NCBI RefSeq assembly: GCF_056712565.1
Contig: NZ_CM160072.1
DNA: 64,000 nt
Reading direction: 5' to 3' (one strand)
The notes below the pieces were generated by a model. It searched no databases. It was not told where the DNA came from and saw only the letters and a program-made list of their open reading frames with translations. This document shows, in pieces, positions 22,084-36,576 of the stretch (its first letter is position 1; each line of letters starts with the position of its first letter). The translations under genes and the position numbers were made by a program.

Positions 22084-22148
22084 GATGGTGACCTCAGTTA
22101 AGAGAAGCCCGTTAAGTGTAGTTCGAAATTTATACAGATGAGAGGGAA

Positions 22149-22228
<80 letters not shown>

Positions 22229-22242
22229 CGATCACAATACAA

Positions 22243-22578
22243 TCAGTTCTTTTTCACAAACTCAGATTTCAGTTTCATCGGACCAAAACCGTCGATTTTG
22301 CAATCGATGTTATGGTCGCCTTCAACCAGGCGGATGTTTTTCACTTTGGTGCCAATTTTCAGCATCGAAGAGCTACCTTTCACCTTCAGATCTTTAATGA
22401 TGGTCACGCTGTCGCCGTCAGCCAGCAGATTGCCGTTAGCATCTTTAACGATCAGCTCGTCGCTTTCCTGTGCAGGTTCTGCGTCGTTCCATTCGTAGGC
22501 ACATTCCGGGCAGATGTACATGCCGTTATCTTCGTAGGTGTATTCGGAGTTGCATTTTGGGCAGTGTGGTAATGACAT
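22243..22578 (-). CDS. yjdM: PhnA-family zinc-ribbon protein YjdM
   Basis: ORF 22243..22725; start at [30 protein letters not shown] (cat 22576-22578); CxxC...CxxC zinc ribbon. Confidence 0.88.
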
Positions 22579-22980
22579 GTGGATTTCCTCAAAAGTCAGC
22601 AGGGCAAAAGCGCCAAAAAACGGCAGATTGCCGAAAAAGGCCGCAATTATACACAAAATCCCTGAGTTTGTCGGGGGTACTGCTGATTTTAGACGACGAT
22701 CGTTTTCATTTGAAAGGAAACGCAAAAAGAAAATAATCTTTTTGCCTCCATTTATTATTTAAGATAAGGTTAATGCTCTACATGTTCTTTTTTTAATTCA
22801 AATGATATTTTTTATCTTTCTGACGTTTTAAACGTATCGGAAGACGTTATTTATTCTAATAAAAAACAACACTCTAAATATAAAATTATTTCTTGCAGTA
22901 ATTATAAAAGCCGAAAACAGAACTCAAAAACAATCTGGCTAAATAAAAGTAATAAAATTTGCTTTAAGGAAAAATTTTCT

Positions 22981-25209
22981 ATGTACACACAGACCCTGTA
23001 TGAGTTAAGTCAGGAGGCTGAACGCCTGTTACAGCTTTCTCGCCAACAGTTGCAGTTACTGGAAAAAATGCCTCTCTCTGTACCCGGAGACGATGCGCCA
23101 CAACTGGCTTTACCCTGGAGTCAGCCTAATATCGCCGAACGTCACGCGATGCTGAATAATGAGTTGCGTAAAATTTCCCGACTGGAAATGGTGCTGGCGA
23201 TTGCCGGTACTATGAAAGCAGGGAAATCAACCACCATTAATGCCATTGTTGGTACGGAGGTTCTGCCTAATCGCAATCGCCCAATGACTGCGCTGCCAAC
23301 GCTTATTCGCCATACGCCCGGGCAAAAAGAACCGGTACTGCATTTTTCACATGTCGCGCCAATCGACCATTTAATTCAACAATTACAACAGCGCCTGCGT
23401 GATTGCGATATTAAGCATCTGACCGATGTGCTGGAAATAGATAAAGATATGCGTGCGCTTATGCAGCGGATTGAAAATGGCATCGCTTTCGAAAAATATT
23501 ATCTGGGTGCTCAACCTATTTTTCATTGTCTGAAAAGTTTGAATGATTTGGTGCGACTGGCGAAGGCGCTGGACGTCGATTTTCCTTTTTCTGCTTACGC
23601 CGCCATTGAGCATATTCCCGTGATTGAAGTGGAGTTTGTCCATCTGGCGGGGCTGGAGAGTTATCCCGGTCAGTTGACGTTACTGGATACCCCCGGGCCA
23701 AATGAAGCCGGGCAACCGCATCTGCAAAAAATGCTTAACCAGCAGCTGGCACGCGCCTCGGCGGTACTGGCGGTGCTGGATTATACGCAACTGAAATCGA
23801 TCTCCGATGAAGAGGTCCGTGAGGCAATTTTGGCGGTGGGGCAATCGGTGCCGTTGTATGTGCTGGTCAATAAGTTCGATCAACAGGATCGTAACAGTGA
23901 CGACGCCGACCAGGTGCGGGCACTGATTTCCGGAACGCTGATGAAAGGCTGTATTACGCCACAGCAGATATTTCCGGTGTCGTCGATGTGGGGCTACCTG
24001 GCGAATCGGGCGCGCCATGAGTTAGCCAACAACGGTAAGTTACCACCGCCAGAGCAACAACGCTGGGTGGAAGATTTTGCCCATGCCGCGCTCGGCAGGC
24101 GCTGGCGTCATGCCGATCTGGCGGACCTCGAACATATTCGCCATGCTGCCGATCAGTTGTGGGAAGATTCGCTGTTCGCCCAGCCAATTCAGGCGTTGCT
24201 TCATGCCGCTTACGCTAACGCCTCGTTGTATGCTCTGCGATCTGCCGCGCATAAACTGTTGAATTACGCGCAGCAGGCGCGGGAATACCTGGATTTTCGT
24301 GCGCACGGGTTAAACGTCGCTTGTGAACAATTGCAGCAAAATATCCATCAGGTCGAAGAAAGTTTGCAGCTATTGCAACTCAATCAGGCGCAGGTGAGCG
24401 GCGAGATTAAACATGAAATCGAGTTGGCCCTGACCTCCACCAACCACTTTCTGCGTCAACAGCAAGATGCGGTGAATGCGCAGTTAGCCGCGTTGTTTCA
24501 GGATGATTCGGAGTCGTTAAGTGAGATGCGTACCCGCTGTGAGACACTGTTACAGACGGCGCAGAACACCATCAGTCGCGACTTTACGCTGCGCTTTGCC
24601 GAGCTTGAGTCCACCCTTTGCCGGGTGTTAACCGATGTTATTCGCCCCATTGAGCAACAAGTCAAAATGGAATTGAGTGAGTCTGGGTTTCGTCCTGGGT
24701 TTCATTTTCCTGTTTTTCACGGCGTAGTTCCCCACTTCAACACCCGCCAGCTGTTCAGCGATGCAATATCCCGTCAGGAAGCAACGGATGAGCAGATCAC
24801 CCGTTTTGGCGTTGTGCGTGAGATTTTTTCGCGCTGGTTGAATCAGCCCGACTGGGGACGGGGAAATGAGAAATTCCCGACAGAGACGGTTGATTACAGT
24901 GTGTTGCAACGAGCATTAAGCGCAGAAGTCGATCTTTATTGCCAACAAATGGCTAAAGTTATGGCAGAGCAGGTCGATGAATCTGTTACGGCAGGCATGA
25001 ATACTTTTTTCGCTGAGTTCGCTTCATGTTTGACGGAATTACAGACGCGTTTACGCGAAAGTCTGGCTCTGCGTCAACAAAATGAATCCGTGGTCAGGCT
25101 GATGCAACAGCAATTGCAGCAGACTGTGATGACTCACGGCTGGATTTACACCGACGCTCAGCTGTTACGCGATGATATTCAAACACTTTTCACGGCAGAA
25201 CGATATTGA
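22981..25209 (+). CDS. crfC: Dynamin-like GTPase CrfC (YjdA)
   Basis: 742-aa ORF; P-loop GTMKAGKST near N-terminus, long coiled-coil C-terminus. Confidence 0.9.
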   Translation: MYTQTLYELSQEAERLLQLSRQQLQLLEKMPLSVPGDDAPQLALPWSQPNIAERHAMLNNELRKISRLEMVLAIAGTMKAGKSTTINAIVGTEVLPNRNRPMTALPTLIRHTPGQKEPVLHFSHVAPIDHLIQQLQQRLRDCDIKHLTDVLEIDKDMRALMQRIENGIAFEKYYLGAQPIFHCLKSLNDLVRLAKALDVDFPFSAYAAIEHIPVIEVEFVHLAGLESYPGQLTLLDTPGPNEAGQPHLQKMLNQQLARASAVLAVLDYTQLKSISDEEVREAILAVGQSVPLYVLVNKFDQQDRNSDDADQVRALISGTLMKGCITPQQIFPVSSMWGYLANRARHELANNGKLPPPEQQRWVEDFAHAALGRRWRHADLADLEHIRHAADQLWEDSLFAQPIQALLHAAYANASLYALRSAAHKLLNYAQQAREYLDFRAHGLNVACEQLQQNIHQVEESLQLLQLNQAQVSGEIKHEIELALTSTNHFLRQQQDAVNAQLAALFQDDSESLSEMRTRCETLLQTAQNTISRDFTLRFAELESTLCRVLTDVIRPIEQQVKMELSESGFRPGFHFPVFHGVVPHFNTRQLFSDAISRQEATDEQITRFGVVREIFSRWLNQPDWGRGNEKFPTETVDYSVLQRALSAEVDLYCQQMAKVMAEQVDESVTAGMNTFFAEFASCLTELQTRLRESLALRQQNESVVRLMQQQLQQTVMTHGWIYTDAQLLRDDIQTLFTAERY

Positions 25210-29796: not shown

Positions 29797-31436
29797 TCAC
29801 TCACTCTCCTGCAAGTTTGCAGAATATCATCCGCAGCCTGGTAATACTTCGTCTCAACGCCAGTCAGGCCCAATAAGGTTGAGAATAAGTTGTCTTGTGA
29901 ATAGTGTTGCGTTTGCGCCTGTTTTTGCAGGCAGTTCTGGTCAACCTGATACCGTTTTTGATAATCCTCCGATAGCCACAGCAGCATCGGCACCTGTTTT
30001 TGGCTATCCGGGGCGATGGCATAAGGCAGACCGTGCAGATAGATGCCATTTTCACCTAACGATTCACCGTGGTCAGAAAGATAAACCAGGCTGGTGGTAA
30101 ATTTATCCTGATGTTCTTTCAGCAGATTAATCGCTTTATCAACAATATAGTCGACGTAAACCAGCGTGTTGTCGTAAGTGTTCACCAGTTGCTCTTGGGT
30201 ACAGGTCTGGATCTCGTTAGTGTCGCAGGTTGGGGTAAATTTCCTGAACTGCGGCGGATAGCGGTTGTAATAGGTCGGGCCGTGGCTGCCGATAGTGTGT
30301 AATACAATGAGGCCATCGCTTTGCAGATTATTGATGTACTCTTCCAGCCCGTGGAACAGCACTTCGTCATAGCATTCGCCGTTGATGCACTGACCAGGCA
30401 GGTTCAGCGCGGTGACGTTCTGGTGAGGTACGCGATCGCAAACGCCTTTACAGCCGCCATCGTTGTCATTCCACAGCACGTTGATGCCCGCTCGCTGAAT
30501 GATATCCAGCACGCCTTCCTGGTGCTGTGCCAGCTCTTCTTTGTAGTGCTCACGCGGCATATCCGAGAACATGCACGGCACTGAGACGGCTGTTGCTGTG
30601 CCACAAGAGGCGGTATTAGGGAAATAGACCACGTTATCTTTTGCCAGGCGAGGATTGGTTTCGCGTGGATAACCATTCAGCGAGAAATTCTCTGCGCGCG
30701 ACGTTTCTCCGACGATCAAAATGGTCAGGTTTTTGCGTTTCCCATTTTGCATTAATGGGTTGCGGTGAGCATCTTCACCAATGCGTATCAGTGGCAGGTT
30801 GGCTGACCGCTGGTGAGAGTACCACGACCAGCTAGCAACAATGCTGTTGGACGGGCTTAAGGATTTCACCAGTTCTTTGTTGTTGCGAAACAGCGATGCA
30901 TAGTCTTTGTAGAACAGTGCGGCAACCAGCAGAATCAGCAGTACAGAAATCAGGATGTTGGCCCCGCGGAAAAGAACGCTGCGCAGGCGTGAGGTGGTGG
31001 GTTTGATTTTGATCCAGCAGGCAATCAGCGCAGCAAGCACGCCGCTGAATCCCAGCGTTAATAACATTTGCGGCGTCATCAACGCATAACTTTCTGCCGG
31101 AGTGGTATCAATAATATTGGCAATCATCGAGCGGTCGATGACGATGCCGTAAGTCATTATGAAATATTGTGCAGCCGCGCCAACCAGAATAAACAGGCAG
31201 GCCAGCGGTCGATTAAGCCACAAGAAAGAGCTTAGTGTCAGGACAATATTAATCACGCTGAAGGCGACGACCGGCATCGACAAGAAAACCAGTACGTTAT
31301 GCAGCGAGTCCAGCGGCAGCGCCTGCAACACCTGTTTAAAAAAGGCAATATTCAGGCAGATAGAGATATAAAAAGCGGCTAACAATAGCCAGGCGAGTAA
31401 ATTCAAAGAGGGTCTTTTTAGTAGGCGCTTCAACAT
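29793..31436 (-). CDS. eptA: Lipid A phosphoethanolamine transferase EptA (PmrC)
   Basis: ORF 29793..31481; start at [14 protein letters not shown] (cat 31434-31436); N-terminal TM segments plus sulfatase-like domain; overlaps basR. Confidence 0.92.
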
Positions 31437-33775: not shown

Positions 33776-34110
33776 ACATGTACTCCTGAGTGCGAATAAA
33801 AGACCAGTTCTCGCTAAAGCGAAGCGATACCGGGAAATGGTTATATAATTGTATGATGAATATAAACATGCATAAAAATAACGAGTTTTACTAATATTAC
33901 AAATTTTTATAGTAATTTCTCATGTACATATTTTTTTACAGGCTAAAAAAAGGATAAATAACAGGCAAAAAAAAGCGCGGGGTGGGACCGCGCAAAAAGC
34001 ATGACATTTTTTGTTTGCAGCAATTTTTATGAAAACGTTGCCATACTTAAAAGGCCTCAAGCCAGGCGGCGTAATGTTATTTAACAATTACGCCTTCAGC
34101 GGAATAGTGG

Positions 34111-36381: not shown

Positions 36382-36576
36382 TGCTTACCCGGTTATGAAG
36401 GAATCTTCGTTGCGGGCAAGTATCTTCCGGCCTTTTCGGGCTGTAAAGCGCGTGAAAAACAAACATTTTTGAAATATTTATTTTTATAAACAACACGTTA
36501 TGTGATTATTTTAAATTATTTTCACTGCTTATTATCGACGGCTAAACTATTTTTTTGGCTGATACTGATATCGTCT

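Follow-up and report, generated by a model that had tools for sequence, protein, structure and literature searches.

The 402 bp that separate yjdM from crfC in Escherichia coli very probably constitute the shared control region of these two divergent genes, of which crfC (rdcA) is the first gene of rdcA-rdcB. The left edge of the region (22579-22700) would hold the sigma70 promoter of yjdM together with a leader of about 60 nt, intrinsically curved by in-phase A-tracts, and the AT-rich core (22701-22980) most likely holds the crfC promoter and a long A/U-rich leader. The core is most likely also a nucleation site for H-NS, through which crfC expression would be held low. Transcription of crfC from a candidate promoter named P3 would produce a leader of about 200 nt that contains a hairpin, a conserved block (22888-22919) and an A-rich segment adjoining the ribosome-binding site. 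That an AT-rich, H-NS-repressed divergent promoter region lies at this position is already known, as it is documented for the same locus in K-12. Added here are a map that separates the AT-rich part, the curved part and the conserved promoter-like elements, a caution regarding sigma28 promoters listed in databases, and comparative evidence for a reduced ancestral region.

Location, base composition and predicted curvature

The window, i.e. the whole stretch of 64,000 nucleotides that was analysed, is E. coli ATCC 11775, with 100% identity in a comparison to the ATCC 11775 record. As yjdM ends at 22578 and crfC begins at 22981, the 402 bp between them coincide exactly with 22579-22980, and the gene order 3' of crfC continues with rdcB (yjcZ) and then proP. 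The genes and the large-scale features of the region are as follows:

22243-22578, minus strand: yjdM (formerly phnA), from open reading frames and the RefSeq annotation of the identical ATCC 11775 record
From 22981, plus strand: crfC (= yjdA, rdcA), from open reading frames and RefSeq annotation
22579-22980, no strand: yjdM-crfC (rdcA) intergenic region, 402 bp, 31% GC, from open reading frames, annotation and composition
22701-22980, no strand: AT-rich core, 24% GC, counterpart of the K-12 crfC promoter region reported to be bound by H-NS (PMC6374313)
22580-22752, no strand: phased A-tracts with the strongest predicted intrinsic curvature of the region, from a wedge model and a phasing score

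No annotated feature lies inside 22579-22980 in either the ATCC 11775 record or the K-12 RefSeq record. No Rfam family matched the intergenic region at E values up to 1, nor did any match the intergenic region in a scan of nine orthologous loci. The sole strong Rfam match was found downstream of yjdM, where the REP-type element naRNA4 (nucleoid-associated ncRNA 4, CssrE) occupies 22148-22225 on the minus strand of the yjdN/yjdM gap with 96 bits against a gathering score of 59.5.

Of 5426 complete E. coli genomes, 5411 carry the region, with identities of 96-100%; five of the 5420 places matching this chromosomal region stand in records labelled plasmid. K-12 differs from the window at 11 positions (nine substitutions and two one-base gaps), all of them within 22749-22972. 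Identity to K-12 is 97.3% for the AT-rich core, equal to that of crfC itself, and 99.7-100% for yjdM and its promoter. Copies of IS1A were found in the AT-rich spacer of two unrelated E. coli strains, 503025 and 3908. In strain 503025, crfC is annotated as incomplete and is split by a second IS1A. In strain 3908, 85 bp of the 351-bp spacer query still match, and crfC is annotated as incomplete with its N-terminus absent.

The sequence-only reading had described the entire gap of about 400 bp as strongly AT-rich, with long A/T runs. The GC content of 22579-22980 is indeed 31.1%, compared to 51.0% for the 64-kb window, and at scan sizes of 200, 280 and 402 bp it is here that the GC content of the 64 kb is lowest. 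At 280 bp the minimum GC fraction is 0.236, about 4 standard deviations below the mean (mean 0.51, sd 0.067). A/T tracts occur at 90 per kb in the region and at 21 per kb in the window, and the run that had been quoted, TTTTTTAATTCAAATGATATTTTTTATC, is located at 22789-22816. This composition is uneven, however, so that the description of the whole gap as AT-rich holds for 22701-22980 (24.3% GC) but not for the 122 yjdM-proximal bp at 22579-22700 (46.7% GC). When the 27 crude inter-ORF gaps of 80 bp or more in the window are ranked, the region has the second-lowest GC content, and as ten of the 27 have a GC content of 37% or less, the yjdM-crfC gap is the extreme of a common class rather than a separate kind of sequence. 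Other intergenic gaps of the window also contain very AT-rich 100-bp spots (17-20% GC), at 33841-33940, 36455-36554 and 9538-9637.

Curvature was predicted by a wedge-model path calculation in 120-bp windows over the 64 kb and by an A-tract phasing score that is independent of the wedge model. The wedge model ranks the 120-bp window that begins at 22578 second in curvature within the 64 kb (z = -6.3), followed by moderate curvature at 22700-22780 and none at 22800-22980 (z about 0). The phasing score reaches its top value of the whole window at 22627-22752. The suggestion that the gap might be curved was therefore borne out at 22580-22752 by two calculations, but not for the most AT-rich, crfC-proximal part. 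By these models, curvature would reside in the promoter and leader of yjdM and in the adjoining upstream sequence, and not in the most AT-rich half. Elsewhere in the 64 kb, the wedge model places the most curved 120-bp window at 29898-30017 (z = -6.7), which exceeds the maximum of the region.

Conserved elements on the yjdM and crfC sides

Searching one genome per species with the N-terminus of CrfC yielded 80 Enterobacteriaceae loci, and at 77 of these yjdM and crfC lie next to each other in divergent orientation. Between them, the spacer ranges from 323 to 1397 bp with a GC content of 33-45%, in every case below that of the flanks. The Escherichia spacer is among the shortest and is the most AT-rich (396-402 bp, 31-33% GC), compared to mostly 520-610 bp and 34-43% GC in other genera. 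Five conserved islands could be aligned, namely the yjdM promoter, P3, the hairpin, the block at 22888-22919 and a start-codon block, and the sequence between them is poorly conserved and rich in indels. As the AT-rich core is indel-rich between genera, much of it may be unconstrained. In Cedecea and allied genera (five loci), an additional plus-strand ORF of 238 aa lies between yjdM and crfC, in a spacer of about 1182 bp. Three features were located on the yjdM side:

22646-22674, minus strand: predicted sigma70 promoter of yjdM, from consensus scans and conservation
22615-22633, minus strand: small hairpin (CGGCAAUCUGCCG) and then a U6 run, where the predicted yjdM leader begins, from a terminator scan and folding
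22647-22655, plus strand: exact match (TTATACACA) to the DnaA-box consensus TTWTNCACA, overlapping the yjdM -10, from a motif scan

The predicted yjdM promoter consists of a -35 element CCGACA (22674-22669), a 17-bp spacer and a -10 element TATAAT (22651-22646), with a predicted start at about 22639. Its hexamers are invariant and its spacer is variable in an alignment of 12 genera, and the motif CCGACA-N17-TATAAT is present in 57 of 78 species. This conserved and well-predicted promoter sits in the GC-normal edge of the region, outside the AT-rich part. The predicted leader of about 60 nt would begin with the small hairpin and U-run, which resemble a terminator or an element stabilising the 5' end; the GGCnnnnnGCC core of the hairpin is kept across genera with few compensatory changes. 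The exact DnaA box TTATACACA occurs only in Escherichia, C. amalonaticus, C. koseri and Cedecea colo. An inverted repeat, TGACAG-N4-5-TGTCA, which precedes the yjdM -35 by about 40-50 bp in Enterobacter, Kosakonia and Lelliottia (seven loci and others) and is lacking in E. coli, looks like the binding site of a regulator.

Two coding readings of this edge were rejected. The yjdM frame contains no stop in the 49 codons that precede its ATG (22579-22725, minus strand) and would encode a hydrophobic stretch, but the conserved promoter falls inside this extension, which is therefore probably never translated. A plus-strand ORF of 44 aa that clusters in 55 regions likewise overlaps the conserved yjdM promoter, and the invariant hexamers with a variable spacer in this stretch are the pattern of a promoter and not of a coding sequence.

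On the crfC side, the following elements were found:

22710-22737, plus strand: best crfC-strand sigma70 consensus match, TTGAAA-16-AATAAT (10/12), from scans; conserved only within Escherichia
22742-22770, plus strand: P3, a conserved promoter-like element TTGCCT-N17-TAAGGT with a predicted start at about 22777, from the cross-genus pattern
22815-22844, plus strand: hairpin UCUUUC..ACGUU-UUA-AACGU..GGAAGA, equivalent in E. coli to a covarying hairpin of other genera
22888-22919, plus strand: conserved block TTTCTTGCAGTAATTATAAAAGCCGAAAAC, from an alignment of 78 species and counts
22937-22980, plus strand: near-invariant A-rich segment adjoining the ribosome-binding site, from alignments

P3 is the best-supported candidate for the crfC promoter and would imply a leader of about 204 nt. 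Its pattern, TTGCnn-N17-TAnGGT (TTGCYA-N17-TAWGGT), keeps its spacing while the spacer sequence varies, and it recurs in 59 of 79 regions, including two from E. coli. The -10 element (TAAGGT) is weak, the weight-matrix score is 8.3, and the P3 of K-12 differs by one substitution in the -10 (TAATGT) and hence fails the search pattern. A conserved -35/-10 pair was thus found upstream of each gene, invariant for yjdM and a weak match on the crfC side. This arrangement resembles other divergent sigma70 regions in that the genes lie 402 bp apart and a crfC-strand pair is found about 138 bp away from the conserved yjdM -35/-10. It differs from them in the weak consensus match on the crfC side and in an implied leader that is unusually long and A/U-rich, and all start sites given here, as well as the roles of the conserved blocks, are inferred from sequence. 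Divergent promoters had been expected within the AT-rich gap; a conserved predicted yjdM promoter and a candidate for crfC were both found, the former outside the AT-rich part.

A hairpin located about 200 nt upstream of the crfC ATG in other genera differs in sequence between genera while its pairing is kept. In the alignment used, 90% of cells are paired and eight of nine pairs show compensatory changes, counts that are inflated as the alignment was fitted to the model's own structure. All five hairpin measures beat 500 of 500 shuffles and every slid control, and a covariance model of the hairpin matched 58 loci. This model found no match in the E. coli window, so that the E. coli hairpin rests on its position and its own weak fold (-7.3 kcal/mol, not significant by itself at z = -0.7). 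Many of the pairs are U-G, so only the plus-strand RNA can fold, and the plus-strand fold is more stable than the minus-strand fold in 58 of 72 species. Together with continuous conservation from P3 to the ATG, a hairpin restricted to the plus strand favours a long transcript in the sense of crfC. Directly preceding the covarying hairpin in most genera, about 200 nt upstream of the crfC ATG, is AAATGnGCTACGCT, which fits a sigmaS-type -10 (pattern KCTAYRCT). Citrobacter, Enterobacter, Kosakonia, Trabulsiella and Yokenella are among the genera that keep it, and Escherichia has a T-run in its place at the equivalent positions 22802-22812.

Conservation is unbroken from 22888 to the crfC ATG. The block at 22888-22919 contains the octamer GCCGAAAA at 22910-22917 and two overlapping -10-like hexamers, TATAAT on the minus strand (22906-22901) and AATTAT on the plus strand (22900-22905). 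Across species it takes the form TTTTCCACACGTAATTATAAAAGCCGAAA, about 75-95 nt upstream of the ATG, with TTGCAG replacing CACACG in E. coli. An exact DnaA box, TTTTCCACA, lies inside the conserved block about 93-96 nt upstream of the crfC ATG in 26-28 species, including Kosakonia, Enterobacter and Phytobacter; it is degenerate in Escherichia, with no exact match. Closer to the gene, TTTGNGTTARGG lies within 45 nt of the crfC ATG in 75 of 78 species, and the segment 22937-22980 contains five consecutive A-R-N triplets (22942-22956) and a Shine-Dalgarno sequence AAGGA (22966-22970). A search for conserved structure in the 95 nt upstream of the ATG returned a consensus fold of -2.3 kcal/mol with a 3-bp stem and nothing convincing, and a structured RNA element next to the ATG was rejected on this basis. 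The rpoS gene has a long 5' leader whose A-R-N repeats bind Hfq. The crfC leader is similar in that its five A-R-N triplets stand 10-25 nt 5' of the Shine-Dalgarno sequence and are nearly invariant across genera; it differs in that the run is here a sequence feature, and one not improbable by chance in A-rich DNA. In published RIL-seq data, a GlnZ signal is described near the ribosome-binding site of rdcB and not at the crfC leader.

H-NS binding and alternative explanations

The gap had been proposed as a candidate for binding by nucleoid proteins, a proposal that finds support in published H-NS work on K-12. The K-12 crfC promoter region is reported to be bound by H-NS in ChIP-chip (Oshima 2006) and SELEX (Shimada 2011) experiments, as cited in PMC6374313. 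In the same paper, Taniguchi et al. showed by RT-qPCR that deletion of hns markedly raises crfC mRNA at 30 and 42 °C, and they noted sequences resembling DnaA boxes and, at 42 °C, a two-fold rise that depends on DnaA (PMC6374313). In the window, 24% GC over 280 bp matches the AT-richness of H-NS-bound and H-NS-repressed regions, and curvature of the kind seen in such regions was predicted at 22580-22752 and not at 22800-22980. Consensus scans of the region for H-NS, IHF, Fis and CRP revealed no enrichment. The high-affinity H-NS motif (TCGATAAATT-like) had no match in the region with up to two mismatches, and a degenerate H-NS motif had two matches, not above the window-wide rate. The high-affinity motif is not obligatory for H-NS binding.

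At the AT-rich regulatory regions of proU (proV) and bgl, H-NS represses the promoters of core genes of E. coli. The yjdM-crfC region is like them in being AT-rich and dense in A-tracts over several hundred bp, in the H-NS binding and derepression upon hns deletion reported for it, and in predicted curved DNA adjoining promoters. Unlike proU and bgl, it lacks a defined pair of upstream and downstream H-NS elements as well as a match to the high-affinity motif, and its target is a conserved core operon with islands conserved family-wide within the AT-rich DNA.

It could be argued that the AT-richness has no function, the weakly constrained core having drifted towards A+T in Escherichia after the loss of elements and H-NS binding being passive. 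Such an explanation is rather unlikely, even if it accords with a short and most AT-rich Escherichia spacer and with the fate of GCTACGCT, TTTTCCACA, GATATATCCTG and the first hairpin, which are kept elsewhere and gone or decayed in E. coli. The core also diverges from K-12 at the rate of crfC, and IS1 insertions are found here in at least two strains. Several islands within the core are nevertheless still conserved across genera, and as crfC mRNA is markedly altered by the loss of H-NS, binding affects regulation irrespective of how it arose. Drift after the loss of ancestral elements in Escherichia may still account for some of the AT-richness. A more radical version, in which the AT-rich stretch is horizontally acquired DNA or the remnant of a mobile element, would fit a very low GC content typical of H-NS-silenced DNA, but has next to no probability. 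The core is present in nearly all E. coli genomes (5411 of 5426), sequence islands and gene order are conserved family-wide, and this conserved synteny excludes horizontal acquisition. The flanking genes are of normal GC content, and a repeat search of the region returned only short matches of chance size, with no terminal repeats and no repeat family.

Two further explanations assign other transcription signals to the core. Two sigma28 promoters, yjdAp2 and yjdAp1, are entered in RegulonDB with start sites that correspond to 22909 and 22924 of the window, and they are the only promoters on record in the AT-rich core. Were they class-3 promoters, crfC-yjcZ would form a single operon of the flagellar regulon. 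Like a FliA class-3 promoter, the region possesses, besides the RegulonDB entries, the octamer GCCGAAAA, a 7/8 match to the sigma28 -10 GCCGATAA and identical to the octamer of the tsr promoter, in a stretch that reads AAGCC or AAACC in 67 of 78 species. In addition, the normalised RNA value of yjdA falls from 111 to 11 upon deletion of fliA, although reads downstream of an internal promoter could explain this drop. The evidence code of both entries covers human inference of position alone (PMC4183435 supplement), and the -35 is effectively absent, as TCTTGCAG matches TAAAGTTT at two of eight positions at the required 11-bp spacing and at one of eight at 10 or 12 bp. No FliA ChIP-seq peak is reported for the region; both the ChIP-seq site, which drives yjcZ, and a genomic SELEX peak of the sigma28 holoenzyme lie inside yjdA, and Fitzgerald et al. 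2014 termed the upstream promoter incorrectly predicted. The motif of that site was located in the window:

24954-24981, plus strand: intragenic FliA (sigma28) promoter inside crfC, driving yjcZ/rdcB, from the ChIP-seq motif

Promoter activity has been reported for this intragenic promoter, and it is intact in ATCC 11775, with octamer matches of 7/8 and 6/8 and a -35 one base off that of K-12 (TAAAGTTA vs TAAAGTTC). The FliA promoter of the operon is thus intragenic. Sigma28 promoters upstream of crfC are accordingly improbable; the database entries are unsupported, and interpreting the region in terms of sigma28 should be abandoned. Of the promoter for crfC-yjcZ that had been placed in the gap, what stands is a candidate for crfC in P3, as the FliA promoter for yjcZ lies 2 kb downstream. 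About equally improbable is a small RNA on the minus strand, 'Ssr28' of Shigella, which was predicted from a promoter and a terminator in the yjdA/phnA spacer of S. flexneri 301 as 328 nt in the direction of phnA and was positive by RT-PCR. The minus strand does offer a perfect TATAAT at 22906-22901, conserved as TATNAT in 68 of 78 species, and a terminator-like hairpin with a U-run at 22633-22615. Conservation is poor downstream of this -10 in the minus direction, however, and the hairpin lies downstream of the conserved yjdM promoter and so fits better as part of the yjdM leader. The spacer is also devoid of an Rfam family and of a feature in the K-12 RefSeq record. In the accessible text of the Ssr28 study, northern blots of 18 candidates are mentioned in the Methods and the Results give northern blots and 5' RACE for Ssr1 only; that text contains neither a discrete Ssr28 band nor a mapped end. 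The small RNA reading is therefore weak, and a shared control region with an H-NS-bound core is preferred here.

Implications for the control of crfC

The comparison across genera suggests that the ancestral control region was richer and that E. coli retains a reduced form of it. Elements conserved elsewhere and decayed or missing in E. coli comprise GCTACGCT (near -200), TTTTCCACA (near -95), GATATATCCTG and the first hairpin, of which GCTACGCT is the sigmaS-type -10 carried by most genera. Perhaps, and this is put forward tentatively and as a possibility with the odds against it, the conserved distal promoter TTGCYA-N17-TAWGGT and a leader of 200-340 nt constitute an undescribed post-transcriptional control point of crfC/rdcA in Enterobacteriaceae. 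Such a leader would contain the hairpin, the conserved block and the A-R-N repeat, along with GCTACGCT and TTTTCCACA in other genera, both of which would have been lost in the shortened, AT-rich and H-NS-controlled version of Escherichia.

The product of crfC/rdcA is a dynamin-like GTPase for which two roles are reported, binding to the replication clamp and, jointly with RdcB, activation of DgcE, the top-level trigger of biofilm matrix production. Overexpression of CrfC delocalises the protein (PMC6374313). The dosage of crfC therefore matters; its level is set in this region, and H-NS silencing via AT-rich DNA is a documented mechanism for doing so. The current understanding of the locus is not overturned by these results, and the comparative details represent a modest lead. 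If the proposed leader is real, it would place the GTPase that activates DgcE, a master diguanylate cyclase, under post-transcriptional control.
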